A stretch of 64,000 bases of DNA from a virus: IMG/VR virus record IMGVR_UViG_3300024983_000001, positions 136,745 to 200,744 of that record, one strand, 5' to 3'. A program made the position numbers and the translations under genes. The notes beneath the pieces were generated by a model. It saw only the letters and a program-made list of their open reading frames with translations, did no database searches and had not been told where the DNA came from. Position 1 is the first letter of the stretch. Each line of letters begins with the position of its first letter. Shown one piece after another: positions 17,496 to 63,659 of the stretch.

Positions 17496-17888
17496 GTGAA
17501 CATGAAACTGATGCCCAACGACTATCAGATGATAGCCAACAAAGCGGTAGAAGTGGGTTTGTACGTGACATCAAACGTTTCCCATATTCAAGAAGGTTCC
17601 TCGCTCTTCGCTTGTGCTAAAGACACCCCCGATGCGAAGACTTTCCGTTACAGTTTTACCGTCGTTCGTGGTGACGAATCTATCACCGTCTCCCACTTCG
17701 TTGGTCCAAAACAGTACACCACCAAGATCACTCTTGATCAGTTCTTAAAGATCGACGAGCAAACGATTGTGGATCTGATGGATCAAGCACGAGCAGCCAA
17801 CGCCGCCTACGATGGGTTGGAGAACCAACTGAAACAGCTCAAACAGGCTCATCGTGCAAACGTTGCAGATCTCCTTCGTAAGGGATAA
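17496..17888 (+). CDS. hypothetical protein
   Basis: ORF behind promoter. Confidence 0.75.
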   Translation: MNMKLMPNDYQMIANKAVEVGLYVTSNVSHIQEGSSLFACAKDTPDAKTFRYSFTVVRGDESITVSHFVGPKQYTTKITLDQFLKIDEQTIVDLMDQARAANAAYDGLENQLKQLKQAHRANVADLLRKG

Positions 17889-17959
17889 CCTAATCACCTG
17901 TTGACCTTTTGTCCATTTGACCCTATAATGGATTCATCAACTGACGAATGGAGCCAATA

Positions 17960-29163: not shown

Positions 29164-29610
29164 ATGAAAATCAAATCAATTGTTGGTGGGTTACTGATGA
29201 TGGCATCGGTTTCGGCGCCCGCATTCAACACTTCGTCTATTCCTGAAGTAGATCAATATATCTACACCCTCAACACAAAAGCCCATTGGAATTTTGGTTC
29301 AGTTTCAGTGACACAGATTGTTAAAGCTGATATGGATCATGATAGTGTGCCTGAGATAGTTGTGATGTATGTCACACGAGGTGCAACGTGGACGATGATC
29401 AATGTTGCTGTGTTTTCAAAACAAAATAACAAATACGTGCTTGTTGATGATGAACAATTGCGTGCAGCAGAGGCATCTCGATTTGAAATTACTAATGGTA
29501 TTTTAACCGTGAATCTAACACAATGGGGTGATGATGATCCACATTGCTGCCCCACTATACACACAAAAGCCCGATTTGTGCTCCGCCACAATAAAATTGT
29601 TGATTACTGA
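29164..29610 (+). CDS. exported protein, LppP/LprE-like C-terminus
   Basis: signal peptide; DDPHCCPT motif. Confidence 0.6.
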   Translation: MKIKSIVGGLLMMASVSAPAFNTSSIPEVDQYIYTLNTKAHWNFGSVSVTQIVKADMDHDSVPEIVVMYVTRGATWTMINVAVFSKQNNKYVLVDDEQLRAAEASRFEITNGILTVNLTQWGDDDPHCCPTIHTKARFVLRHNKIVDY

Positions 29611-38211: not shown

Positions 38212-39288
38212 ATGAGCAAATCAAAAGTTTTGTTTATTTGTAAACGTCGTTCAGACTATCATCAAGATAGTTCATATTCACACAATAGCGTGTCCACGGG
38301 GTTACTAAATTCCGCAACATTTGTAACTGATATGTTAACAAAGGCGGGGATAGATGCCAAATGTGTCATTGTTAATGATAACAATGATATTGACAGAGAG
38401 GTTCGGGCTTTTAATCCTACCCATGTTATAATTGAGGCTTTGTGGGTTGTGCCTGAAAAATTTGACGTGTTGACTAAAATCTATCCCAATGTTAAATGGA
38501 TTGTACGGTATCACTCGGAAGTGCCTTTTGTTGCGACGGAGGGAATTGCAATGGGTTGGTTATTTAGCATGATTGATAGACCCAATGTTGCGGTATCCGG
38601 TAATTCGAAAGTTATTCAAAGCGAGTTGGAGTTTTTGATTAAACATCATTTTAATTATTCTAAAGAAGAGCTTGCAGAAAAGGTGGTATTTTTGCCTAAC
38701 TATTACGATCTAGAGTTGGTTAATCAACCAAAGTTCTATGATGGGTCAAAAGATTATATTTCAGTTGGTTGTTTTGGAGCGATTCGTCCTCTAAAAAACC
38801 AATTGTTACAAGCGGTGGCGGCACTCAAGTTTGCTAATGCAATTGGTAAAAAATTAAAATTTCACATTAACGTGGGCCGCGTTGAAGGGAATGGAGGTCC
38901 AATATTACGCAATTTGCGTGATATGTTTACTCGTTTAAACATCAATGGGCACGAGCTTGTTGAACATCAGTGGATGCCACATGATGAGTTTATGATGATG
39001 TTGTCAACTGAAATTGATATCGGTATGCAAGTTAGTTTTTCTGAAACCTTTAATATTGTTGCTGCTGATATGGTATCAGCAGGTATTCCGATTGTTGCGA
39101 GCGATGAGGTTAAATGGACTTCAAAACTATTTAATGCAGTCCCAACAAACTCCAATGCAATCGCTCGAAAATTGGTGTGGTCAATGGTATTCCGTTATTT
39201 TAACGTAAAATTGGAGCAGTATTTTCTAAAACGCTATGTCAATAAAACCAAACGTGTGTGGGTGAATTTTTTCACAAAAGATTGTTGA
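38212..39288 (+). CDS. GT-B fold glycosyltransferase
   Basis: VGCFGAIRPLKN...QVSFSETFNIVAAD. Confidence 0.75.
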   Translation: MSKSKVLFICKRRSDYHQDSSYSHNSVSTGLLNSATFVTDMLTKAGIDAKCVIVNDNNDIDREVRAFNPTHVIIEALWVVPEKFDVLTKIYPNVKWIVRYHSEVPFVATEGIAMGWLFSMIDRPNVAVSGNSKVIQSELEFLIKHHFNYSKEELAEKVVFLPNYYDLELVNQPKFYDGSKDYISVGCFGAIRPLKNQLLQAVAALKFANAIGKKLKFHINVGRVEGNGGPILRNLRDMFTRLNINGHELVEHQWMPHDEFMMMLSTEIDIGMQVSFSETFNIVAADMVSAGIPIVASDEVKWTSKLFNAVPTNSNAIARKLVWSMVFRYFNVKLEQYFLKRYVNKTKRVWVNFFTKDC

Positions 39289-39338
39289 TATATTCTGAAG
39301 TATGTGTAAAATTGTTAACATGATGTGTGGAGAATATT

Positions 39339-39860
39339 ATGTCAAACGATAATGTATGGAAGATTGATAGTTGTGTTGGTTTGTTTGGAACGTGTGGTAA
39401 TAGCACCTGGCGCCACCCCATGATGGCAGCCCTCAATGCACAAGGCATCACATATTTCAACCCACAAGTTGATGGATGGACGCCCGAATTTGCTAAAGTT
39501 GAGGCGGAACATCTTGTTAGTGATGATGTTGTGCTGTTTCCGGTTACAGGCGAAACGTACGGTACAGGGTCGTTGGCGGAAGTTGGATTCTCTATTAACA
39601 CAGCGTTAAAATCCATCAACGAAGATGCTTTTAGATTTTTGGTGGTAATGATTGATGATGCATTGATTCCTGAATTAATGGCCGATGCCGTAGCCGCGAA
39701 GGAATCGATTCGGTCGAGAGCATTAGTTTTAGCACATTTGAAAAAAATTAAACATCCAAATGTTTTCATTGTGGATAGTTTTGAAAGAATGACATCATTA
39801 GCAATCGAATTATCGTGGGTTTCGTCCACCCTGAAAAGACTCAAAGCAAGTACGAAATAA
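39339..39860 (+). CDS. nucleoside 2-deoxyribosyltransferase-like protein
   Basis: GLFGTCG...WR...YFNPQV..W...E...GSLAE. Confidence 0.7.
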   Translation: MSNDNVWKIDSCVGLFGTCGNSTWRHPMMAALNAQGITYFNPQVDGWTPEFAKVEAEHLVSDDVVLFPVTGETYGTGSLAEVGFSINTALKSINEDAFRFLVVMIDDALIPELMADAVAAKESIRSRALVLAHLKKIKHPNVFIVDSFERMTSLAIELSWVSSTLKRLKASTK

Positions 39861-40020
39861 AATATTGGTTGACATTTATAAATAGTTACTATATACTTTT
39901 AATAACAGTTGAGCAATCAACACGAATTTAAAGTTTTAAAAATATTGGTTGACATTTATAAATAAACCATATATAATTAATGTAACAATTGAGCAATGTG
40001 CTCGCAAACGAATTTAGGAT
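39860..40020 (+). promoter_or_regulatory. tandem sigma70 promoters of the tRNA array
   Basis: AAAATATTGGTTGACATTTATAAATA twice, with TATACT / TATAAT; homologous to 63423-63500. Confidence 0.8.
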
Positions 40021-40027
40021 TATTAAG

Positions 40028-40135
40028 ATGACTACATTTACAACATTTTTTGCACCAGAACATACACCTGCAACCACATGGTTTGCAGCGGAGCCTATGT
40101 GTGCCTTTTTAATTGGTGGTGGATCTAGTAATTAA
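40028..40135 (+). CDS. putative attenuator leader peptide MTTFTTFFAPEHTPATTWFAAEPMCAFLIGGGSSN
   Basis: 35-codon ORF after AGGA RBS, between promoter and terminator; read by hand. Confidence 0.75.
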   Translation: MTTFTTFFAPEHTPATTWFAAEPMCAFLIGGGSSN

Positions 40136-40154
40136 GTAAATCCCCTGAATAATT

Positions 40155-40186
40155 AAAAAGGCTTCCGTAAAAAGGGAGCCTTTTTT
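40155..40186 (+). terminator. attenuator terminator upstream of tRNA array
   Basis: AAAAAGGCTTCC-GTAAAAA-GGGAGCCTTTTTT; 5' arm also pairs with 40103-40114. Confidence 0.85.
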
Positions 40187-40206
40187 ATTGTCTAGTGTTT
40201 TTAGGT

Positions 40207-40278
40207 GTGTCATGATTGTGAGGGTTAGCAACTTTCCTTGTGACGGAAATAGAATGGGTTCGAGTCCCATATGGCACC
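40207..40278 (+). tRNA. tRNA-His(GTG), atypical, no CCA
   Basis: GTGTCAT/ATGGCAC, TTTCC-TTGTGAC-GGAAA, C73. Confidence 0.7.
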
Positions 40279-40297
40279 CCTAAAAGTGTTAGACGAT

Positions 40298-40372
40298 GGC
40301 GGTTATAGCTTAGTGGTAAAGTCCTGGATTGTGATTCCAGTCACGAGAGTTCAATTCTCTCTAACCGCCCCA
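40298..40372 (+). tRNA. tRNA-His(GTG)
   Basis: G-1:C73, CTGGA-TTGTGAT-TCCAG, CCA. Confidence 0.95.
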
Positions 40373-40387
40373 AAGTTTTTGTTGTAT

Positions 40388-40400
40388 TGATCTTTAACAA
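40388..40400 (+). promoter_or_regulatory. boxA-like Nus antitermination site
   Basis: TGATCTTTAACAA vs rrn boxA TGCTCTTTAACAA. Confidence 0.65.
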
Positions 40401-40443
40401 TTTGGATGTTGTTTTGTTTTATTGTCGACATTGTGTCATTTGT

Positions 40444-40515
40444 CGGTATGTGGGTCAAAGGTTGATCACTTCGTTTGGGGCGAAGACGATGCTGGTTCGA
40501 GTCCAGCCATACCGA
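40444..40515 (+). tRNA. tRNA-Pro(TGG)
   Basis: CGGTATG/CATACCG, CTTCG-TTTGGGG-CGAAG; no CCA. Confidence 0.9.
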
Positions 40516-40540
40516 CAAATGACATAGTGTTGATAAATGT

Positions 40541-40625
40541 TACCTGTTCGCATAGCGGCGATTGCATCGGTCTCCAAAACCGACGATGAAAATCCACGGG
40601 GGTTCGAGTCCCTCACAGGTAGCCA
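40541..40625 (+). tRNA. tRNA-Trp(CCA), expanded variable loop
   Basis: TACCTGT/ACAGGTA, TCGGT-CTCCAAA-ACCGA, GCCA. Confidence 0.88.
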
Positions 40626-40645
40626 AACAACGTAGAATATATTGA

Positions 40646-40718
40646 CAGGGTGTGGTGCAATCTGGTAGCATAGCTGGTCTGGAGCCAGGCGATTACAGTT
40701 CAAATCTGTACATCCTGA
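40646..40718 (+). tRNA. tRNA-Pro(TGG), C33 variant
   Basis: CAGGGTG/CATCCTG, loop TCTGGAG; no CCA. Confidence 0.8.
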
Positions 40719-40737
40719 CAATATATTTTACATTAAT

Positions 40738-40813
40738 CTCCCTTTGGTGTTTAACAGTAGCATAGCGGTTTTGGAAACCGGCGGCGCAGGTGCAAATCCT
40801 GCAGGGGTGACCA
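40738..40813 (+). tRNA. tRNA-Pro(TGG)
   Basis: loop TTTGGAA, T loop TGCAAAT, ACCA. Confidence 0.8.
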
Positions 40814-40924
40814 TTATTACTATACATTGCTTGTGGTAGTTTAAGTCGGGTGCAACCGTACATACGCCCATTCGTATGTGACAACCTTAAACGGTAGTGT
40901 GTAGTGATAATGGAAAGTTTTATT

Positions 40925-40999
40925 GGGGGCAGTAGTGGGCTACGGAGATGCCTTGCAAGTATCTTGTCTAGAAGGGTTCGATTCCCTCGGCCTCCACCA
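40925..40999 (+). tRNA. tRNA-Ala(TGC), minimal D arm
   Basis: G3:U70, GATGC-CTTGCAA-GTATC, ACCA. Confidence 0.8.
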
Positions 41000-41004
41000 A
41001 ATTT

Positions 41005-41090
41005 GTTGTGTAAACGTTGACTTGCAAGCAACGGAGTTGGTATAGCTTTGTGACACAGAGTAGAAGGTTCGAATCCTTAAACACAACTTA
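41005..41090 (+). pseudogene. degenerate tRNA-Val(GAC)-like
   Basis: GTTGTGT/ACACAAC, GTGACAC loop, GGTTCGAATCC; abnormal D arm, no CCA. Confidence 0.45.
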
Positions 41091-41098
41091 TTTTCAAT

Positions 41099-41174
41099 AT
41101 ACCTCTGGCGTAAGTGGTCTGCGCGCTTGTTTGAAGCACAAGAGGACACAGTTCGATTCTGTGGGGGTATACCA
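41099..41174 (+). tRNA. tRNA-Phe(GAA)
   Basis: CTTGT-TTGAAGC-ACAAG, ACCA. Confidence 0.9.
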
Positions 41175-41185
41175 ATTTTAAAGTT

Positions 41186-41255
41186 TTGTGATAGTATAAA
41201 CCTAATAGCACCCACCGTTGAGGCGGGAGATCTCAGAATTGAACCTGAGTCACAA
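41186..41255 (+). pseudogene. degenerate tRNA-like element (Gln TTG?)
   Basis: TTGTGA/TCACAA stem, CTCAG/CTGAG stem with non-canonical T loop. Confidence 0.35.
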
Positions 41256-41341
41256 TGTTCCACTAAGCCTCGTCTGACAACGGGCTGTTTTGGATGAGGT
41301 CCTGTTAATTATTGATTGTGTCAGCAGTTAAGATTGACAGA

Positions 41342-41412
41342 TTGGTTATAGCAAATTGGAAATGCGCTTCGCCACCCAGCGAGAGGTCAGGGTTCGATTC
41401 CCTGTAACTAGA
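41342..41412 (+). pseudogene. degenerate tRNA (Gly-like, 6-nt anticodon loop)
   Basis: TTGGTTA/TAACTAG, TTCGC-CACCCA-GCGAG, canonical T arm. Confidence 0.5.
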
Positions 41413-41470
41413 TGACCAACAAAAGAGTATTTGATGAGTATTCTTTTATTGGTTTTGATGTAAATTTAAT

Positions 41471-41546
41471 GGGCTGCGATTGAGCTGGGGTTCTTGGCTG
41501 CTTTGCAAGCAGTTATCGTAGGGTTCGATTCCCTAGCGGTCCACCA
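41471..41546 (+). tRNA. tRNA-Ala(TGC)
   Basis: G3:U70, GCTGC-TTTGCAA-GCAGT, ACCA. Confidence 0.88.
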
Positions 41547-41597
41547 AAATATCGCCATATATAGTAAGTGGCTATTCCGCCGCCTAGGAGAAATATT

Positions 41598-41786
41598 ATG
41601 GATTTAATTAGCTTAGTAATCGTATTGGTGGTGGTAGGTGTATTATTGTGGATGGTCAACACATACATTCCGATGGATGCAAAAATTAAACAAATTCTGA
41701 ACATTGTTGTTGTAATTGTTGTTGTTCTTTGGTTACTGAAGGTGTTTGGACTTATTGGTGCCCTATCAGGCATTCACGTAGGTTAG
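41598..41786 (+). CDS. Thivi_2564-family small membrane protein
   Basis: LIVLVVVGVLLW.VNTYIPMD.KIK.ILN.VVVI.VVLWLL. Confidence 0.85.
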   Translation: MDLISLVIVLVVVGVLLWMVNTYIPMDAKIKQILNIVVVIVVVLWLLKVFGLIGALSGIHVG

Positions 41787-41821
41787 TAACAAGCAACCCA
41801 CAGAAATCGTGGGTTAATCAT

Positions 41822-41896
41822 ACTCTCATCGACTAGCGGTCAGGTCGCGACATTCTCAATGTTGAAACATCGGTTCGAATCCGATTGGGAGTTCCA
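41822..41896 (+). tRNA. tRNA-Glu(CTC)
   Basis: CGACA-TTCTCAA-TGTTG, CCA. Confidence 0.92.
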
Positions 41897-41904
41897 AATT
41901 TAAT

Positions 41905-41980
41905 GCCCCTGAAACCTTTAATGGATGAGGTCCTGTCTTGTAAGCAGGAGAAGTCGGCTCGATTCCGGACTGGGGCACCA
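41905..41980 (+). tRNA. tRNA-Thr(TGT)
   Basis: CCTGT-CTTGTAA-GCAGG, ACCA. Confidence 0.9.
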
Positions 41981-41986
41981 GTTAAT

Positions 41987-42062
41987 GCCGGTATAGCTCA
42001 ATGGTAGAGCTGTTCCGTTGTAGGGAACAGGTTGACAGTTCGATTCTAGTCTGCCGGCTCCA
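41987..42062 (+). tRNA. tRNA-Thr(TGT)
   Basis: GTTCC-GTTGTAG-GGAAC, CCA. Confidence 0.88.
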
Positions 42063-42115
42063 GTTTAATTCGTTGTGTTGACTTTATTATCTCAAACTGT
42101 TATACTGTGTATAAT

Positions 42116-42898
42116 ATGGGAGTGTTGTGTAATATGGAAAAACGAACAGTTGTGTGTTGTGTAGGGTGTAACCACGAATTTGGTTCGGCAGCCTTTAGCC
42201 AACACCACCCAGAATCAGTAAGTTGTAAAAAACTCCAAGCTGATAATATGGTTCCTGATAATTTAGTGTGTACATTTTGTGAAAAGCAGATGGTAAACAA
42301 AAGTAGTTATAAAAACCATTCACAGAGATGTAAAGAAAATCCACACCGTGTTGTCCAACGAGGGATGGCAGGAAAAATCCCTTGGATTAAGGGTAAGTGT
42401 AAAGACAACTGTGATATTTTGGCTAAAACAGCTCTCGAAAATTCAATTAAATTAAAAGGAAAAATTGGCCGTAAGTGGACGCAAGAAGAGAAAAATAAAT
42501 TATCAGCTCATGCAAGAAGCCATGGTTATGGTGGGGTTAAGCAATCTCAGAAAACCTTATATAAAGGTGTTCTGTTAGAATCATCATATGAAGTAGCTGT
42601 TGCAATGTCGTTAGATGCATATTTCGTTGAGTGGGAGAAGCCTGGTAGGTTTAATTATATCGATTGTTACGGTAAAAATAGAACCTATCGGCCTGATTTG
42701 TATTTACCCAAATACGATATTTACCTGGATCCCAAAAATGACTTTTTGATCAACAATATTAATCCTACCCTCAAATTTAAAGATGTTGATAAAATACAGT
42801 GGGTTTGTGAACAAAATGATATAACGGTATTGATTTTGAATAAAAATCAATTAAGTTGGAGTGATATTAAAGCCTTATTAGTTCATCAAGTAGAATAA
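42116..42898 (+). CDS. putative PD-(D/E)xK homing endonuclease with zinc fingers
   Basis: ESSYE...YRPDLYLPKYDIYLDPK; NUMOD-like WTQEEKNKLS; inserted in tRNA array. Confidence 0.75.
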   Translation: MGVLCNMEKRTVVCCVGCNHEFGSAAFSQHHPESVSCKKLQADNMVPDNLVCTFCEKQMVNKSSYKNHSQRCKENPHRVVQRGMAGKIPWIKGKCKDNCDILAKTALENSIKLKGKIGRKWTQEEKNKLSAHARSHGYGGVKQSQKTLYKGVLLESSYEVAVAMSLDAYFVEWEKPGRFNYIDCYGKNRTYRPDLYLPKYDIYLDPKNDFLINNINPTLKFKDVDKIQWVCEQNDITVLILNKNQLSWSDIKALLVHQVE

Positions 42899-42946
42899 TT
42901 GTTTCGTACTCAATAGAAGATCGTGCAAATCGGTCATAAGGCTCCA
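42872..42946 (+). tRNA. tRNA-Thr(CGT), overlapping endonuclease 3' end
   Basis: GCCTTAT/ATAAGGC, loop TTCGTAC, T loop TGCAAAT, CCA. Confidence 0.8.
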
Positions 42947-42949
42947 TAT

Positions 42950-43021
42950 GTGAACTTAGTGTAGTGATGCACAACCCCGCTTGAGGGAGAGGACACGGTT
43001 AAATTCCGTGAGTTCACACCA
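42950..43021 (+). tRNA. tRNA-like element, anticodon undetermined
   Basis: GTGAACT/AGTTCAC acceptor and CCA; poorly paired anticodon stem. Confidence 0.55.
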
Positions 43022-43027
43022 AACAAT

Positions 43028-43101
43028 CTGTTCTTAGTGTAGTGATGCATTACTCCCATTTGGGGGAGAAGGACACGGTTAAATTCCGTGAGAACAGGCC
43101 A
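43028..43101 (+). tRNA. tRNA-like element, 6-nt anticodon loop
   Basis: CTGTTCT/AGAACAG, CTCCC-ATTTGG-GGGAG; D and T arms identical to 42950. Confidence 0.55.
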
Positions 43102-43109
43102 AATTTAAT

Positions 43110-43185
43110 GCCGCTTAAACTAATCTGGTGAAAGTGCAAGCCTGAAAAGCTTGAAAGGTTGGATCGTAACCAACAGGCGGCACCA
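43110..43185 (+). tRNA. tRNA-Phe(GAA)
   Basis: CAAGC-CTGAAAA-GCTTG, ACCA. Confidence 0.9.
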
Positions 43186-43196
43186 GTTTTTAATAT

Positions 43197-43272
43197 GTCT
43201 CATTCGTCTAAAGGTAAGGACGTCACTCTTTCAAGGTGAAGATGTTCGGTTCAAGTCCGACATGAGACTCCA
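43197..43272 (+). tRNA. tRNA-Glu(TTC)
   Basis: TCACT-CTTTCAA-GGTGA, CCA. Confidence 0.93.
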
Positions 43273-43283
43273 GTTTTAAATAT

Positions 43284-43358
43284 ACACCTGTAGATTAGTG
43301 GCTAGATCGCTTGGTTTTCACCCAAGAGAAGACGGATCGTAACCGTTCAGGTGTACCA
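43284..43358 (+). tRNA. tRNA-Glu(TTC)
   Basis: CTTGG-TTTTCAC-CCAAG, ACCA. Confidence 0.9.
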
Positions 43359-43365
43359 TTACAAT

Positions 43366-43444
43366 GGGCTTACGGCAGGTTGGATCTGAAGAGAACGTCG
43401 CGCGCCTCTTTTAAGGTGGGTTCGAATCCCACGGTAGCCCGCCA
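43366..43444 (+). tRNA. tRNA-like element with 12-nt anticodon loop
   Basis: GGGCT/AGCCC acceptor, AAGAG-AACGTCGCGCGC-CTCTT, GTGGG-TTCGAAT-CCCAC, GCCA. Confidence 0.55.
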
Positions 43445-43450
43445 TTTTAT

Positions 43451-43525
43451 ATTCCGTTAGACTTCTGGTGAGGTCAGTAGGCTTTCAACCTACGTAGAGG
43501 GGATCGTAACCCCTACGGAATACCA
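43451..43525 (+). tRNA. tRNA-Glu(TTC)
   Basis: GTAGG-CTTTCAA-CCTAC, ACCA. Confidence 0.9.
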
Positions 43526-43533
43526 AACACAAC

Positions 43534-43890
43534 GTGATAAAAGGAGGATGCTATGACACCGCTAAACGCACAGGAAACAAGGGCCAAGTAAAAACCACAA
43601 TAGGTGGGGTGAGTAAAAAATTCAAAAGAATGGCTGAAGTATATCGCATATTTTCAAAAGATTGGGAACATATGCTCGATTACAGCGACGATGCCATGAT
43701 TGAAATGTACAACAGCGAATCCTATGGAACACCAGTTAGCAGAACTAATGGTTTTTATGTAGGGAAGCAGTGGTTAAATGTTAATGTACAGATGTGGAAA
43801 GAAGATATTAGCAAAGGGTATTTGCAAAAATGCGAATTGTATGATGATCCCAAATTTCCGCATTGGTGGTTGGATAATGTATTAGATTGA
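43534..43890 (+). CDS. hypothetical protein (start uncertain)
   Basis: ORF. Confidence 0.6.
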   Translation: MIKGGCYDTAKRTGNKGQVKTTIGGVSKKFKRMAEVYRIFSKDWEHMLDYSDDAMIEMYNSESYGTPVSRTNGFYVGKQWLNVNVQMWKEDISKGYLQKCELYDDPKFPHWWLDNVLD

Positions 43891-43945
43891 CATTATTAAA
43901 AAATGGTAGTACTCTATTAAAGACTTTTATTAAAGGAGTGTTATT

Positions 43946-44389
43946 ATGGCAACGGAAGAATTTTTGGATGCGTTTATTGTTGGTGGCGGTCCAGTTGAGG
44001 AGTGTGATTTTTGTGGCAATACATTCTACTCAACTACGGATCTCGACGAAGAAGAACTTAAATATTATGAAGAGCGCGGGGAGAAATCACCGTTAAAATT
44101 CCATCCTGAGCCGTATGATAGCATTGAATTTTACGTAATTGACAACAGACGATATGTATATGGTTGTTCTTGCAATGCACTCGATAAGTATGAACAGTTT
44201 ATTTGGGAACACCGCGAAAGAATCTTGCGATATTTAAATAGCCGTTCACAAATCGAACATGATCGTGCTGTTGTTGAGAAGGCTCGCGTTGACGCTGCTG
44301 TTGAATTGCACAAAAATGCAAAAAATGTTGCAGAGGCGTTGGCTGCAGCAAACAGAGTACTAAATAACACCAAAGCTTCATATACGTAA
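43946..44389 (+). CDS. hypothetical protein
   Basis: ORF+GGAG RBS. Confidence 0.75.
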   Translation: MATEEFLDAFIVGGGPVEECDFCGNTFYSTTDLDEEELKYYEERGEKSPLKFHPEPYDSIEFYVIDNRRYVYGCSCNALDKYEQFIWEHRERILRYLNSRSQIEHDRAVVEKARVDAAVELHKNAKNVAEALAAANRVLNNTKASYT

Positions 44390-44629
44390 TGATGATTTAC
44401 ATGTTAAAAGGATAAAAGTCCTAACGCCCCTTATTGGTGGTTGGATAGGTGTTAAAAATAATATGAAAATATTTCTTAAAATACAGAATTTTAGTTGGAC
44501 ATTTTGTGGCATACAGTACGTGATTAATTGGCCAGCAGTAATTCTTATTGGCGGCACCTTTGTTGTGGTGGGGCTATTACAACACTTTGGTGTTGTGGGT
44601 TGACAAGAGCAGTCATTAAGGAAAATGAT

Positions 44630-44812
44630 ATGAAATGGAATATATTTGATCCAAAAAACGAGGCTGTATTGAAGATGGTTGGAATATCAAACGAACAGTT
44701 AAATAAGCTTCGGTTGGCACTGGAGTTAGCCCAACAAAAAGTAAAGGCGGTGAGATCGTTGCCTAGTGAAACGGATCAACCTAATACAGGTCCTGAAAAA
44801 AGTAACGAATGA
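44630..44812 (+). CDS. hypothetical protein
   Basis: ORF+AGGA RBS. Confidence 0.55.
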   Translation: MKWNIFDPKNEAVLKMVGISNEQLNKLRLALELAQQKVKAVRSLPSETDQPNTGPEKSNE

Positions 44813-44849
44813 TTTGATTACCGACGGCGCATACAAAGGATAATAAGTA

Positions 44850-45350
44850 ATGTTAGTTTTTATTGATACGGAATTTACGAACTTTAAAGATATGGAGATG
44901 ATATCAATCGGTTTGGTATCGGCGGATAAATCCAAAGAGTTTTATATGGAGAATGCTGATTACGATCGTTATGCATGTTCTCCCTTTGTTAATGAAATAG
45001 TTATCCCGTTGTTATCAAGAACGCCTGATGTAATGCAACCAAAACTAAAAATTGAGGATGCGTTGCGTGAGTGGACTGAAACATTCGATGAGTCTGTGGA
45101 AATCGTAATTGACTATCTTGGTGATTGGGCGATACTGGTTGATTTGATGAATGGATCTTTACCACCGAACATGAAAAAGACACCTTTGTTCGTGCAGTCA
45201 CTAACGATGTTTAGTGAAAAGGCAGGAGAAGAATATGTTAAAGGTTGTCAACAATACTTTGATGAAACGGAGCAACATCCTCACCATGCGTTGAGTGATG
45301 CTAAATCTAATTTACATGGGTTTCATCAAGCAATGAAAATTTTATATTAA
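44850..45350 (+). CDS. DEDDh 3'-5' exoribonuclease (RNase AS-like)
   Basis: VFIDTEFT...ISIGLVS...EFY.E...HHALSDA. Confidence 0.85.
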   Translation: MLVFIDTEFTNFKDMEMISIGLVSADKSKEFYMENADYDRYACSPFVNEIVIPLLSRTPDVMQPKLKIEDALREWTETFDESVEIVIDYLGDWAILVDLMNGSLPPNMKKTPLFVQSLTMFSEKAGEEYVKGCQQYFDETEQHPHHALSDAKSNLHGFHQAMKILY

Positions 45351-45405
45351 TGGTTGACTTTTAAAACTGTTTAATATATAATTTATGGATAGTATGAAAT
45401 TTAGC

Positions 45406-45481
45406 GCCCAGTTAGCTCAGCGGTAGTAGCAACTGCCTTGTAAGCAGTAGGTCGTCTGTTCGATTCAGACACTGGGCACCA
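45406..45481 (+). tRNA. tRNA-Thr(TGT)
   Basis: ACTGC-CTTGTAA-GCAGT, ACCA. Confidence 0.95.
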
Positions 45482-45482
45482 A

Positions 45483-45534
45483 AAGACACTAACAGCAATT
45501 TATTTTTTTCATAAAAAAACCAAATTGTGTCTTG
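45483..45534 (+). ncRNA. AGACAC..ACAGCAA...GTGTCTTG element, copy 1 (skipping-rope-like)
   Basis: same frame as 63281-63409. Confidence 0.5.
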
Positions 45535-45589
45535 TTAAAATTTAATATGTTGTTGACTTTATCGAAGCTACAATATATAATAGTTAAAT

Positions 45590-46540
45590 GTTTGAAATTC
45601 TCCAACTATTAGTTGGCACCGAAGTAGATAGGTGAATTTGAATCTGCTTAGTATAAGGGTCTAATGCAACGTCAGTTGTACCTTATTAAAAGCAAAAAGT
45701 TTTGGGGCATGACCCTGATAATCTTCCGTAAGGTTGAAAAAGCGAGGACGCCTACGCACTCGCGCCAGCAATGGTCAATTCATGCAAGCCCGACCCACCT
45801 CGAGAGAGGCTGATCGTTGCCAACAGCGGTCATATGGGGGAAGTTAGAGATGTGGAAAGAATGGGTGTTTACAAGCCTGAATCGAAAGAGGATGGGAACT
45901 TGTGCACGTAGAGAGTAACAGGTTGTGCTGACCTCACATCTACACAAACTAACCATCCCAAAGGTGTAAAGGGTAGTGTAATGGTCCGAACCCGCAAGTA
46001 AGGGCTGTTATGCAGGTTGATGGGGGTGTGGTGTCTCGCAAGGGATGTCATAATTCCTGAAAACTGGTTGAGTAATCGGCAGATGAAAGACATGAGGAGT
46101 GTGGTATTTTGATGTCCAAAAGATATTGAATCCACAGGAAGCGCACTTCTTGGTAGGTACAAAAGGTTAGGGTTAAAAGCCCATATAAATTTGGATTATA
46201 TTACTTAAAAACGCAAAGTCGTTTCCAGCGTTGTACTAAAGTGGCTTAATCCTCTAGTCGCGAGACAATAGAGGCGTCCGAAACTCGCAAGGTCGAAGAT
46301 GTTGAATGAAAGTTGCACGGTGGCCCGCAAGCCTTCATAGTTCGCAAGACTGACGGTATACAGAAATTCGAGTAATACAACGTGATGAGTGAACCGCCCC
46401 ACTCTAAAAAAGGCAGTCATGTTAACAGACGGTAGTGTGCGCAAGCAGCTATTGTGGATAAGAGTAGAACCGTGGGTGTCGCAGCCTATACGGATAATGA
46501 CTCGAAGGTGTTAATATATAAAGTATAATCTCAGCTTTAT
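45590..46540 (+). ncRNA. GOLLD RNA
   Basis: ~950 nt non-coding, own promoter (45553/45576), many GCAA/GAAA tetraloop hairpins, 3' blocks ACAACGTGATGAGT..CCGCC..ACTCTAAAAAAGGCAG, GGATAAGAGTAGAA, TAATCTCAGC recalled from GOLLD; flanked by tRNAs; 5' end approximate. Confidence 0.8.
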
Positions 46541-46555
46541 AAATAGTATTATAAT

Positions 46556-46632
46556 CGGACATTAGCACAGCTTGGTAGTGCGCTTGCTTTGGGAGCATGA
46601 GGTCGTAGGTTCGAATCCTACATGTCCGACCA
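46556..46632 (+). tRNA. tRNA-Pro(TGG)
   Basis: loop TTTGGGA, ACCA. Confidence 0.95.
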
Positions 46633-46637
46633 TCAAT

Positions 46638-46713
46638 GCGGGTGTATCTCAGTTGGTAGAGAGCTTGCTTGCCAAGCAAGATGTCGTGAGTTCGAATCTC
46701 ATCACCCGCTCCA
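46638..46713 (+). tRNA. tRNA-Gly(GCC)
   Basis: CTTGC-TTGCCAA-GCAAG, CCA. Confidence 0.95.
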
Positions 46714-46734
46714 TCATTTTTCTGAATATAACAT

Positions 46735-47013
46735 ATGAATTGTGATAAACTTCAAGAACTATTACAAAACGGTTCTCTCATTATCGATGTTCGTCATCCT
46801 GACGAATTTGTCAAAGGCAATATAGCCGGTTCAATTAACATTCCCTTGCATCAAATCCCCCACAATTTAGACCAAATCAAAGACAAAAGCGTTTTCTTGT
46901 ATTGCCGTTCTGGTGCCCGTAGTGAACTAGCAAAACAATATCTATTAACCGAAGGTGTTGATGCTCACAACTTAGGTGGCATCAACGATTATATTGGTTG
47001 CGTCAACTTTTAA
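46735..47013 (+). CDS. single-domain rhodanese/sulfurtransferase
   Basis: IIDVR.PDEF..G.I.GSINIP...LYCRSGARS. Confidence 0.9.
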   Translation: MNCDKLQELLQNGSLIIDVRHPDEFVKGNIAGSINIPLHQIPHNLDQIKDKSVFLYCRSGARSELAKQYLLTEGVDAHNLGGINDYIGCVNF

Positions 47014-47987
47014 TTGACGTGTGACATAAAAATATCGTGTGCCTGCTGCCAAGACCACTTATTGTGTGCAGCAACAGCAACGATATCCCTATCAAGCGAT
47101 AAGCATTCGTTGATTGCTTTATTTAAATCTTCGTAATAAAACCCTGTTGTGCCGTGAGTAATTGCATCAGTTGGACCAGTTACGGGATATGCGGCGACTG
47201 GCGTACCCATACTCATAGATTCAATCATTACTAAACCAAATGTATCAGTTAAACTTGTAAACACCATACAATCTGCATTCGCGTAGATTTGTCCTAATTC
47301 GTAGCCGTGTTTGTAGCCCAAAAATTCAACATTGGGATATTTCTGCTTAAGCTCTTCGAGGTATGGGCCATCGCCGACAAGCTGTAGTTGGAATTTGTTA
47401 GTGTCTAACTTACAAAATGCATCTAAATTTTTTTCCCTGCTTACTCGACCAACAGAAACCAAAACAGGTTTTTCGTGTTGGATTTGTTCAGTACGGGGCT
47501 GTCCAAATAGTTCTACATCAACCCCCCGAGTCCACGATACGGCATTCGTTATTCGTTGTTCATACAATTCCATACACATCGTTTCGGTTGTTGTTAATAC
47601 AGCCGTAGCATGTTTATGAAACCATCTTAAAAAGGCCCACGTAATTCCTTTTGGAACATGAGCAAGTTCGTACAAAAAATCAGGAAATTTGGTGTGATAT
47701 GCTGTCGTATATGGCACATTGTGGTATTCGCAATACGTTCTAGCAACCACACCCATTACTCCCTCGGTGGCGATGTGTACATGAGTTGGAGTTAATTCTT
47801 TGATCGTTTTCCAAACTTTCACCGGCTCTGTGCAAATCTGAACTTCAGGATACACCGAAAAGGAAGTCCATTTAAACATGCCGGGATGAAGAATGTGCAG
47901 TTGTCCTGGAGATAGTTTTAGAATATTTTTGTAGGTGGTAGATACACCATTTACTTGTTCAAACGTATCAGTTACTATAAGATTCAT
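47010..47987 (-). CDS. GT4 glycosyltransferase (Agt-like glycolipid synthase)
   Basis: PQVNGV-like EQVNGV, HIATEG..G, WTRGVD, VGRVSREKNL, SLTDTFGLVMIESM. Confidence 0.85.
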   Translation of the reverse strand: MNLIVTDTFEQVNGVSTTYKNILKLSPGQLHILHPGMFKWTSFSVYPEVQICTEPVKVWKTIKELTPTHVHIATEGVMGVVARTYCEYHNVPYTTAYHTKFPDFLYELAHVPKGITWAFLRWFHKHATAVLTTTETMCMELYEQRITNAVSWTRGVDVELFGQPRTEQIQHEKPVLVSVGRVSREKNLDAFCKLDTNKFQLQLVGDGPYLEELKQKYPNVEFLGYKHGYELGQIYANADCMVFTSLTDTFGLVMIESMSMGTPVAAYPVTGPTDAITHGTTGFYYEDLNKAINECLSLDRDIVAVAAHNKWSWQQAHDIFMSHVN

Positions 47988-53287: not shown

Positions 53288-53354
53288 TTTTGTTGATTTT
53301 TTCTGGTAACTACCGGAAAATAATATAATATTGAAAATATTGTGGAGAGATAAA

Positions 53355-54815
53355 ATGACTGACATGCTTACTGGTTTGATCGATGAAACGAATGTAGCTT
53401 TTACTGAAAATGGTGCGCGTGTGTTTGCCACGACCAAATCCAGCATGCTTGACTTTTTCGCCCTCGGTGGTGCGCTGCGCAACCGTGCACATCCCGAAGT
53501 GATTAGTTTGTTTGATAAGGCACTGGCAGAAGACCCGCTGATGGCTGTCAAAGCTATGTTTTACTTCCGTGATGTCCGTGGTGGTCAAGGAGAACGTGAT
53601 ACTTTCCGTGTACTCATCCAGCACATGGCAAGTGTAGCACCAGATACCCTCCGCAAAAACCTTGTATACATTCCTTATTTTGGCCGCTGGGATGATCTGT
53701 ATGCTCTTGTTGGCACGAGTGTTGAGGATGACGTGTTTGCACTTATTGGTAAACAGTTTACCGAAGACCGTTTGAGTGAAACACCGTCCCTAATGGGTAA
53801 GTGGCTCAAGTCCGAAAATGCATCGTCTGATGAAACCAAAAAATTGGGCTATATTACTCGCAAAGCACTTGGATTATCGTCCAAAGAATACCGTTTGGTA
53901 CTGAGCGATCTTCGTCGTAAGGTCAATGTGGTGGAGCGTTTGATTAGTGCCAACAAGTGGGATAACATTGATTATAGTTCATTGCCCTCAAATGCAGGTC
54001 TTTTGTATTCGAAGGCCTTCGGTCGCCACGATGGTGAGCGCTACAAGGCGTTCATTGATGCCGTCAATGCTGGCGAACAAACCATCAACGCGAAAACTTT
54101 ATTTCCGTATGAGTTGGTACGGAAGGCGATGCAAAAGCAATACGACGATGAACCGGCCGATCCGGTATTGGATGCTATGTGGAACAATTTACCGAATTAC
54201 ATGGGTGATACACCCGAGAACTCTATTGCTGTTGTCGATGTGTCGTTCAGTATGTCGGGATTGCCCATGGAAGTAGCCGTTTCTTTGGGTATGTACATAG
54301 CTGAGCGCTCAAAAGGACCATATAAAGATTATTTCATTACGTTTAGCGAATCGCCCCAAATGCAAAAAGTTGAGGGAACGAATTTTGTACAGAAAGTTGC
54401 AAATCTTGTTGATTCGGATTGGGGGATGAACACCGACATCGAGGCTGTATTTGATTTGATTCTCCAGGTCGCGGTCAAGAACAAACTTTCACAAGATGAT
54501 ATGGTAGAACGGTTGTACATCATTTCGGATATGGAATTTGATGATGCAGATAGTCGGGCGTCGAATGAATCTTTGTTTGATGTGATTGCTGATAAGTATA
54601 AACAAGCAGGTTATATTGTACCAAAGCTGGTATTTTGGAACGTGGACTCACGTAATGATCAAACACCCATTACCACCGATCATCGTGGTGTTCAGTTGGT
54701 CAGTGGTTGTTCACCATTCATCTTTACGAGTTTGATGATGCACAAGGATGTTTCTGCTTATGATCTTATGGTTGAAGTGTTGAACAGCGAACGCTACGCA
54801 GCGATTAGTGTTTGA
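53355..54815 (+). CDS. TROVE/vWA protein (DUF2828 family, Ro60-like)
   Basis: TENGA...LDFF...RDVRGGQGER...GRWDDL...GKWL...VVDVSFSM...ISDMEFD...FWNV. Confidence 0.88.
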   Translation: MTDMLTGLIDETNVAFTENGARVFATTKSSMLDFFALGGALRNRAHPEVISLFDKALAEDPLMAVKAMFYFRDVRGGQGERDTFRVLIQHMASVAPDTLRKNLVYIPYFGRWDDLYALVGTSVEDDVFALIGKQFTEDRLSETPSLMGKWLKSENASSDETKKLGYITRKALGLSSKEYRLVLSDLRRKVNVVERLISANKWDNIDYSSLPSNAGLLYSKAFGRHDGERYKAFIDAVNAGEQTINAKTLFPYELVRKAMQKQYDDEPADPVLDAMWNNLPNYMGDTPENSIAVVDVSFSMSGLPMEVAVSLGMYIAERSKGPYKDYFITFSESPQMQKVEGTNFVQKVANLVDSDWGMNTDIEAVFDLILQVAVKNKLSQDDMVERLYIISDMEFDDADSRASNESLFDVIADKYKQAGYIVPKLVFWNVDSRNDQTPITTDHRGVQLVSGCSPFIFTSLMMHKDVSAYDLMVEVLNSERYAAISV

Positions 54816-59186: not shown

Positions 59187-59658
59187 ACTTACTATTACAA
59201 TTGCTGGGCCGACTGGTTCAGGCAGAACTACTCTAGCTTATTACGTAGCAGAAATCCTCAAAGATGATGGTTTGGATGTTGAGGTTCATGATGAGGACGA
59301 CGACACTTTTGTTGTCAGATATAAAGAAACGGATAACAAATATGCATTTTTTGATCGCATCTCAAGAAATCTGGCGGAAATAGCAAAGAATACACAAGTT
59401 GTTATAGAAACAAAACAAACAACACGTCGCACGGCAGATCCAACACAACCTAACCTTACCACCGAATATGAGTGGTCTTCGGCCGGTGGGACAGCATGGA
59501 TGCCTTGTAGGATCATAGCGGCAGTGGGCTCATCACCGGCGCTTGAACCAAACAAAGTTAAAATTTGGTTCGACCCGTTTAATGATGGGGTTGGTGAAGT
59601 GGTGACAACAGATGTGGACAGAATCCGCTACGTTAACAATAAAAATAAAGGAAAATAA
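59179..59658 (+). CDS. small P-loop protein paralogue with C-terminal extension
   Basis: GPTGSGRT Walker A. Confidence 0.7.
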   Translation: MNKLTITIAGPTGSGRTTLAYYVAEILKDDGLDVEVHDEDDDTFVVRYKETDNKYAFFDRISRNLAEIAKNTQVVIETKQTTRRTADPTQPNLTTEYEWSSAGGTAWMPCRIIAAVGSSPALEPNKVKIWFDPFNDGVGEVVTTDVDRIRYVNNKNKGK

Positions 59659-63409: not shown

Positions 63410-63509
63410 AAAATTTTATTTTGAAAAATGGTTGACTTTTATAAATAAGTCATATATAATTAATGTAACAATTGAGCAACGTGCTCGAAACGAATTTAAG
63501 GAAAAAGAA

Positions 63510-63605
63510 ATGTTCACAATTACAACCCAGATTATTAATCGCCAGATGAATATCGTCGTAGATCGTCAAGATTGCGAGGGGACGGGTTTTTGTGTGAATT
63601 TCTAA
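63510..63605 (+). CDS. putative attenuator leader peptide MFTITTQIINRQMNIVVDRQDCEGTGFCVNF
   Basis: 31-codon ORF after AAGGA RBS behind a promoter homologous to 39940-40020; read by hand. Confidence 0.7.
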   Translation: MFTITTQIINRQMNIVVDRQDCEGTGFCVNF

Positions 63606-63630
63606 AGTTCTAAAAAGAAATAAACCAAAC

Positions 63631-63659
63631 AAACCCAGTCCCAAAAGGCTGGGTTTTTT
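63631..63659 (+). terminator. attenuator terminator
   Basis: AAACCCAGTCCCAAAAGGCTGGGTTTTTT; 5' arm also pairs with 63579-63589. Confidence 0.8.

Follow-up and report, generated by a model that had tools for sequence, protein, structure and literature searches.

The locus at positions 39940 to 43525 of the DNA analyzed here is most probably (at about 85%) one of three paralogous leader-peptide transcription attenuators in the same phage, each gating one main transfer RNA (tRNA) array. The DNA, a stretch of 64,000 nucleotides called the window below, comprises bases 136745 to 200744 of the 257,054-bp IMG/VR virus record IMGVR_UViG_3300024983_000001 (CheckV completeness, 78%). This phage carries the working label G000, and related IMG/VR records are labeled G001, G011, G016, etc. 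Positions refer to the window unless given as genome positions. A preliminary description, made from the sequence alone, had proposed a ribosome-mediated attenuator whose codons match the tRNA genes downstream. This is now supported by paralogues in the same genome, by orthologues whose leaders covary with their arrays, by covariation of the antiterminator arm, and by folding of leaders 2 and 3 with a ribosome masking part of the RNA. What was observed directly is the anatomy, the match statistics, the paralogues and orthologues, and the covariation. The order proposed for the locus, namely, promoter, ribosome-binding site, 35-codon open reading frame (ORF), terminator, and array, was borne out element by element, as follows.

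39869 to 39897, plus strand: upstream tandem promoter P1, TTGACA-17-TATACT, the genome copy at 176613

39949 to 39977, plus strand: promoter P2, TTGACA-17-TATAAT, a perfect sigma-70 consensus (12/12)

39990 to 40004, plus strand: hairpin GAGCA-loop-TGCTC in the 5′ untranslated region (UTR), at the start of the transcript (from minimum free energy [MFE] folds)

40016 to 40019, plus strand: ribosome-binding site AGGA, 8 nt 5′ of the ATG

40028 to 40135, plus strand: leader ORF 2, 35 codons plus TAA, with its ATG at 40028

40031 to 40096, plus strand: regulatory codons 2 to 23, encoding only T, F, A, P, E, H, and W

40070 to 40110, plus strand: in-ORF hairpin of -12.2 kcal/mol, followed by C and U5

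40103 to 40114, plus strand: antiterminator 5′ arm GCCTTTTTAATT, within codons 26 to 29, an exact 12-nt complement of 40151 to 40162

40151 to 40162, plus strand: antiterminator 3′ arm, overlapping the 5′ arm of the terminator

40155 to 40186, plus strand: intrinsic terminator, consisting of an A-tract, a 7-bp G+C stem (40160 to 40166 and 40174 to 40180), and a T6 run (40181 to 40186)

40207 to 43525, plus strand: tRNA array 2, detected with ARAGORN and Rfam

Two further claims about this cassette were exact, the restriction of codons 2 to 23 to seven amino acids and the 12-bp complementarity that reaches into the terminator. Since the 3′ arm of the antiterminator overlaps the 5′ arm of the terminator, the two structures are mutually exclusive. 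The antiterminator duplex has a predicted energy of -12.5 kcal/mol, which was equalled by 8 of 500 shuffled tails, and the core stem of the terminator has -11.2 kcal/mol; the predicted terminator ends 20 nt before the first tRNA. By analogy with the 1:2 hairpin of trp, the in-ORF hairpin is possibly an RNA polymerase pause or an anti-antiterminator element. P2 is near-identical to the promoters of both other leader cassettes and of the G011 and G016 cassettes, and the 5′ UTR hairpin is common to all three cassettes and is kept, with altered stem letters, in G011_B and G011_C. P1 is part of a tandem duplication of ~80 nt of the promoter/UTR element (39862 to 39940, plus strand), which lacks a leader ORF of its own and has different letters in the stem of its UTR hairpin.

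Array 2 consists of His (two genes), Pro (three), Trp, Ala (two), Phe (two), Glu(CUC), Thr(UGU) (two), Thr(CGU), and Glu(UUC) (three). Of the earlier claim of 17 well-formed tRNAs, the amino-acid set stood and the count depends on the detection settings. ARAGORN at default settings gave 15 standard tRNAs between 40207 and 43525 (two His, two Pro, one Trp, two Ala, two Phe, four Glu, and two Thr). The third Pro (40740 to 40807; 29.9 bits in Rfam) and the third Thr (41905 to 41977; 27.3 bits, just below the 29-bit cutoff) appeared only with Rfam or relaxed ARAGORN. Under either count, the set is the same seven amino acids.

The promoter/5′ UTR/short ORF/terminator cassette occurs three times in the 257-kb phage, each time before a different tRNA array. 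Copies of the promoter/5′ UTR element were found at genome positions 132228 to 132313 and 200164 to 200242 (window 63420 to 63498), and each full copy is followed by a ribosome-binding site, a short ORF, a terminator, and a tRNA array. Leader 1 is an ORF of 18 codons with its ATG at genome position 132323; M-F-T is followed in it by LKSKSYCSKLLGGLS, and its residue set is L, K, S, Y, C, and G. Array 1, which begins 39 nt after terminator 1, carries Gly, Cys, Gly, Tyr, two Lys, Leu, Ser, Leu, Ser, and three to four Leu tRNAs, with the Cys tRNA detected by Rfam (43 bits) and relaxed ARAGORN. The elements of the third cassette are as follows.

63432 to 63460, plus strand: leader-3 promoter, TTGACT-17-TATAAT, part of the same element

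63510 to 63605, plus strand: leader ORF 3, 31 codons, of which codons 7 to 21 read QIINRQMNIVVDRQD

63579 to 63659, plus strand: leader-3 switch, with an arm that begins at codon 24 and pairs around the 5′ arm of the terminator (terminator core, 63634 to 63653; T6 run, 63654 to 63659)

Codons 7 to 21 of leader 3 encode I, Q, N, R, M, V, and D only. Array 3 lies beyond the end of the window (genome 200979 to 203638) and carries Val, two Ile, a weak Arg, Gln, two Asp, Met, and Asn tRNAs. In leaders 1 and 3, AAGGA stands 7 to 9 nt 5′ of the ATG, and in leaders 1 and 2, a G+C stem with a T6 to T7 run lies 20 to 40 nt before the first tRNA. The three leader residue sets are disjoint, and their union is all 20 amino acids. 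Two other features adjoin these paralogous cassettes. One is a structured-looking, G+C-rich, noncoding region of ~220 nt between a tRNA-Met and the leader-1 promoter (genome 131990 to 132210, plus strand), for which Rfam gave no match at an E value of <0.5. The other, past the window end (L005 672 to 1031; genome 200571 to 200930), is the gene for a protein of 119 amino acids, which separates terminator 3 from array 3. The protein had no Pfam or PHROG match, and at least five other jumbo-phage records have homologues of it inside or next to their tRNA arrays.

Each leader matches its own array. In the regulatory segments, the codons for amino acids of the downstream array (in-set codons) were 22 of 22 for leader 2, 15 of 15 for leader 1, and 13 of 15 for leader 3, or 15 of 15 if Arg is counted. 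The preliminary description had asked how unlikely the seven-of-seven match is against shuffled leaders; for each of the three leaders, the observed in-set count was matched by none of 300,000 nucleotide shuffles. For instance, shuffles of leader 2 gave 7.05 in-set codons on average and never more than 16, compared with the 22 observed. When the whole genome was translated in six frames, it was each array's own leader that gave the longest run of its residue set, with runs of 22 for leader 2 (the next being 12), 15 for leader 1 (next, a poly-Ser run of 14 and one of 12), and, with Arg counted, 15 for leader 3 (next, 12). Chance as the cause of the leader/array match is ruled out by these six-frame maxima and shuffles. 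The match is also specific to the leader's own array. The residues in the set of its own array compared to those of the two other arrays were 15/17 versus 2 and 0 for leader 1, 24/34 versus 7 and 3 for leader 2, and 16/30 versus 4 and 8 for leader 3. Furthermore, a blind whole-genome scan for a terminator, a small ORF with a ribosome-binding site, and a downstream tRNA returned the three leaders; the sole other small ORF that it gave adjoins a tRNA-derived hairpin.

The match extends to anticodons. Counting Watson-Crick and standard wobble pairs, codons of leader 1 sample 11 of the 12 distinct anticodons of array 1, those of leader 2 sample 8 of the 9 of array 2, and those of leader 3 sample 6 of the 7 of array 3, and the earlier statement that most codons of leader 2 fit the anticodons of its array stands. 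Isoacceptors are sampled separately, good examples being AAG and AAA (Lys CUU and UUU), GGG and GGC (Gly UCC and GCC), and GAA and GAG (Glu UUC and CUC), which points to the reading of tRNA species and not merely of amino acids. This bears on the view that the leaders are starvation sensors of the classical type, with which the phage tunes its tRNA output to charging and not to tRNA abundance. As is established for trp and his attenuation, stalling responds to charged tRNA, and both causes would act alike. However, a match at the anticodon and isoacceptor level matters for tRNA supply and not for amino-acid supply, and extra tRNA gives no relief of an amino-acid shortage. We consider such a starvation sensor distinctly improbable.

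The same promoter is conserved in two other IMG/VR records, G011 (178.8 kb) and G016 (a 56-kb fragment), which carry five orthologous cassettes at the following positions.

G011: L071 2214 to 2309

G011: L073 2482 to 2580

G011: L052 7155 to 7250

G016: 2725 to 2823 of the first 27 kb, reverse complement

G016: 17840 to 17941 of the first 27 kb, reverse complement

Their leaders, although homologous to those of this phage, have diverged considerably, with 14 to 20 identities per ~30 aligned residues in the B type. Many of the replacements are chemically radical, yet they stay within the residue set of the array. In the segments preceding the arm, the in-set counts of the five leaders against their own arrays were 14/19, 20/21, 22/25, 20/22, and 23/26. 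As the preliminary description had suggested looking for in related phages, the leaders of the orthologous cassettes covary with their own arrays. A good example of this is unit C, where G011 and G016 have Ser tRNAs (GCU and UGA) together with three to six leader Ser codons, neither of which this phage has there. Asn and Met, which occur in both leader and array of this phage, occur in neither in G016. In G011 C, four Arg tRNAs accompany six leader Arg codons that sample AGA, CGA, and CGC/CGT. When "leader has it" was tabulated against "array has it" for eight leader/array pairs and 20 amino acids, the table was [[53,21],[4,82]], with an odds ratio of 52; as the pairs are related, the Fisher P value of 3e-20 is indicative only. 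Since the composition of the leaders is conserved and their sequence is not, a functional peptide was rejected as the explanation.

The switch itself is also conserved. Each of the nine leaders examined has, in the 3′ portion of its ORF, an arm complementary to the 5′ arm of the terminator (in leader 1 of this phage, the arm begins at the last codon). The letters of arm and terminator both differ between relatives while the pairing is kept, which means that the changes are compensatory. This evidence bears on the view that there is no switch at all, i.e., that the terminators insulate the arrays or end a small leader RNA, that other promoters drive the arrays, and that the match has another cause or arose by chance. 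Promoter-like sites within array 2 and downstream of terminator 3 are in line with such a view. On the other hand, the 20 nt that separate terminator 2 from the tRNA-His and the 39 nt before array 1 are too short for a promoter, chance is excluded, and the in-ORF arm covaries with the terminator. Of the explanations considered here, the absence of a switch is the least probable, and very unlikely.

More distant phages fit to varying degrees. In G001 (237 kb), whose topoisomerase is 50% identical, a long mixed array is preceded by one leader only, of 44 codons and with an in-ORF arm of 10 bp. Its composition match is moderate (39 of 43 residues against a set of 15 amino acids), the equilibrium model always terminates, and the support is weaker. 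At the loci of G012 to G015, more distant jumbo phages that share the 119-amino-acid protein, a simple pipeline found no convincing leader. In a brief check of phiCbK, terminators are annotated before three tRNA blocks, and the small ORFs upstream match the blocks only partly. It is likely, somewhat less so than the attenuator reading of the locus itself, that phages with large tRNA arrays carry a general, undescribed class of codon-matched leader-peptide attenuators, of which this phage has three sensors and which recurs in unrelated lineages.

The geometry of the switch was modeled by ribosome-masked folding, in which the RNA 3′ of a ribosome footprint (first base of the A site + 12) was folded for each A-site position and the equilibrium probability of the terminator stem was computed. 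For leader 2, this probability was 0.03 to 0.31 with the A site at codons 2 to 22 and 0.97 from codon 23, which is the last array-type codon. For leader 3, it stayed at ~0 through codons 2 to 19, rose to 0.09 at codon 20 and 0.47 at codon 21, and was at least 0.84 from codon 22 on; here codon 21 is the last array-type codon. In both leaders, then, the array-type block ends two codons before the arm, which is the downstream limit for a stall that leaves the arm free. In the untranslated full transcript, the terminator was present in the MFE structure of all three leaders. The masked-ribosome model is in line with a position-dependent switch for leaders 2 and 3, G011_A, and G011_C.

From this geometry we infer a switch in which the leader ORF is translated, the hairpin terminates, and stalling, under some physiological trigger, decides between the two structures. 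A strong, constitutive-looking promoter would give a transcript that opens with a short ORF, the first ~20 codons of which call only for the amino acids, and largely the very codons, that the downstream tRNAs decode. If these codons are read fast, the ribosome would enter the last third of the ORF and cover the 5′ arm of the antiterminator, the terminator would form, and transcription would end 20 to 40 nt before the first tRNA. If any one codon is slow, charged tRNA being scarce, the ribosome would stall upstream, the arm, left free, would capture the terminator's 5′ half, and RNA polymerase would read into the array. Each sensor would act as an OR gate over six to seven amino acids, and the three would jointly cover 20. 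Because the products of the array are the molecules whose shortage would stall the ribosome, the circuit would be a negative-feedback homeostat. The phage thus probably makes the tRNAs of each array only when decoding of that array's codons is slow. Candidate triggers are the decay of host tRNA after infection, tRNA-cleaving defenses such as host anticodon nucleases, and a mismatch between codon demand and host supply. Host anticodon nucleases are a plausible trigger; host tRNA decay or a codon-demand mismatch would serve equally. As stalling responds to charged tRNA, low abundance and low charging would be indistinguishable to the sensor.

An alternative to a sensor of particular tRNAs is a general gate on translation status, which would report only whether ribosomes translate at all, for example upon host shutoff or ribosome damage, and for which the codon content would be secondary. 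Any slowing of elongation would open the switch, and untranslated RNA is predicted to terminate. However, such a gate leaves unexplained why three leaders have disjoint sets that match their own arrays and why orthologous leaders drift yet stay in-set. It is improbable, although it ranks just ahead of the starvation sensor.

Several observations weigh against codon-matched attenuation of the arrays. First, the equilibrium folding is not uniform. Leader 1 is ambiguous, with a terminator probability of 0.5 to 0.66 at codons 2 to 8; its terminator is stronger (-15.7 kcal/mol), and its two states differ by at most 0.2 kcal/mol. The model is also ambiguous for G011_B, and in G001 the antiterminator is never favored at equilibrium, so that kinetic control has to be assumed there. 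Second, the match has gaps. Leaders 1 and 3 open with F and T residues that are absent from their own arrays, and G011 is partly discordant, with a leader Met but no Met tRNA and a distal Asn tRNA but no leader Asn. The Arg(UCG) tRNA of array 3 is a call of relaxed-threshold ARAGORN only, with two mismatches in the acceptor stem and no Rfam support, and its UCG anticodon would read the CGC and CGT codons of leader 3 by four-way wobble only. Third, transcription starting at the promoter-like sites within array 2 (42078 to 42106) and past terminator 3 could bypass the attenuator. Fourth, amino-acid starvation would open the gate too, which would be useless for a tRNA operon. Finally, the sequencing runs that contain the phage, from bioreactor and wastewater metagenomes, are DNA only, and no RNA run was found. 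A metagenome scan returned solely the same phage at 99.85% identity, and the DNA contigs from these runs are strain variants only, one of which turns codon 16 of leader 2 from Thr to Ala, both of them in-set.

Among known systems, codon-matched attenuation of tRNA arrays is closest to the enterobacterial leader-peptide attenuators, i.e., trpL, hisL, pheL, thrL, leuL, and the multivalent ilvGMEDA leader. Both have a promoter-proximal short ORF with a ribosome-binding site, regulatory codons, a terminator, and an antiterminator that excludes it, the 5′ arm of which would here too be covered by a ribosome that completes the ORF. Termination, the default for untranslated RNA in the known leaders, is also predicted here, and the multivalent logic resembles that of the ilv and thr leaders. 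Three differences are apparent. First, the known leaders control biosynthetic enzymes, whereas here the controlled genes are tRNA genes and the sensed molecule and the product are of the same class. Second, one or two codons are repeated there, compared to six to seven amino acids and nearly every array anticodon here. Third, three paralogous sensors here share out all 20 amino acids. The locus has every structural feature of this class that sequence can test, and two paralogues and five orthologues share its layout of promoter, ribosome-binding site, and short ORF; the class's usual targets, genes for biosynthesis, transport, or a synthetase, are not what it controls. Curated Rfam leader families gave no match, the only hit being Phe_leader at 25.9 bits versus a cutoff of 55. 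A second relative is the pheM leader, which attenuates the pheST (phenylalanyl-tRNA synthetase) operon of Escherichia coli. It too is a case of leader-peptide attenuation of a translation-apparatus gene that reads the availability of charged tRNA, but it belongs to a host gene, controls a synthetase, responds to a single amino acid, and has no feedback on the tRNA pool itself. T-box riboswitches likewise respond to the state of tRNA by a choice between terminator and antiterminator ahead of translation-related genes, but they bind uncharged tRNA directly, independently of translation, and are marked by a T-box motif and a specifier loop. A T-box or other known riboswitch was rejected, as an E-value scan with Rfam had no hit in window positions 39000 to 47500 or in the two other array regions.

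The preliminary description knew of no attenuator that controls a tRNA array through its own anticodon set. This holds for the literature searched, as leader-peptide control of phage tRNA genes was not found described in a full-text search. The feature is real and a very clean example, and it appears to be unpublished; its novelty would be leader-peptide attenuation applied to tRNA genes, with leaders that sample the anticodons of several amino acids. For decades there has been debate over why phages have tRNA genes, the proposals being codon compensation, replacement of degraded host tRNA, and escape from anticodon nucleases; to our knowledge, the control of phage tRNA expression has hardly been addressed. 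A leader that reads the codons of its own array implies that decoding capacity is gauged codon by codon and topped up on demand. If this is true, tRNA transcription is a self-correcting function of decoding speed, and it is regulated tRNA supply, beyond mere possession, that counters host tRNA decay, tRNA-cleaving defenses, and codon mismatch. The competing hypotheses on phage tRNAs would become testable by asking which perturbation opens which gate, and classical attenuation would be extended to a case in which the sensor input is the operon output, a pure product feedback on tRNA pools. As compact and modular parts driven by sigma-70, the leaders would also report how available defined sets of tRNAs are in living cells, and a small ORF plus terminator ahead of a tRNA block of matching composition would serve as an annotation signature.

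Array 2 has further features. The first is an embedded ORF.

42107 to 42898, plus strand: ORF of 263 amino acids within array 2, with weak PHROG matches to an endonuclease family

It is possibly a homing endonuclease. The promoter-like site at 42078 to 42106 lies directly before it and could give transcription an entry to array 2 that is independent of the attenuator. The second is a pair of tRNA-like genes with 6-nt anticodon loops (41342 to 41412 and 43028 to 43101, plus strand), for which ARAGORN gives a two-letter "anticodon." Genes of this type were also found at L071 2923 to 3005 and L073 3190 to 3262 of G011 and at 29382 to 29456 of G001 (reverse complement), and this recurrence in G011 and G001 makes sequencing errors unlikely.

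The phage has T4-like replication genes, including a topoisomerase II large subunit and an NAD-dependent ligase, and ARAGORN found 49 tRNA genes and one transfer-messenger RNA in the whole record. Protein searches with the PrkA/YeaG-like protein and the topoisomerase found no cultured phage close to this one (topoisomerase identity, at most 35%). No match to the leader region was found by blastn among 50,697 phage records, and an 18-nt UTR pattern gave only chance matches across IMG/VR, within unrelated coding sequences. tRNA arrays were absent from 9 of the 10 topoisomerase-related IMG/VR records checked, and a search for relatives of an RNase H-like neighbor protein found none. The gene directly 5′ of leader 2 (39327 to 39860, plus strand) encodes a nucleoside 2-deoxyribosyltransferase-like protein of 177 amino acids (PF15891, 41.7 bits), whose sole IMG/VR relative is in a 543-kb phage, without synteny and without tRNAs nearby.

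Outside the window, at genome positions 59521 to 59596 (minus strand), is a tRNA with the anticodon CUA (an amber suppressor, labeled Pyl by ARAGORN), which was also found in G001, G002, G011, and G014. Its presence in the phage and several relatives hints at TAG read-through or recoding; TAG is the stop codon of the G011 C leader. Two other observations concern features of the window that lie close to tRNA genes. First, a 494-amino-acid protein with DUF2828 and DUF7788 domains is encoded at 53331 to 54815 (plus strand), and a tRNA-Trp (54823) starts 8 nt later. Second, a GOLLD RNA lies at 46094 to 46537 (plus strand; full-length match of 215.8 bits, cutoff of 150), between a tRNA-Thr (45406) and tRNA-Pro/Gly (46556 to 46713), with a consensus-like promoter upstream of it at 45553 to 45581.

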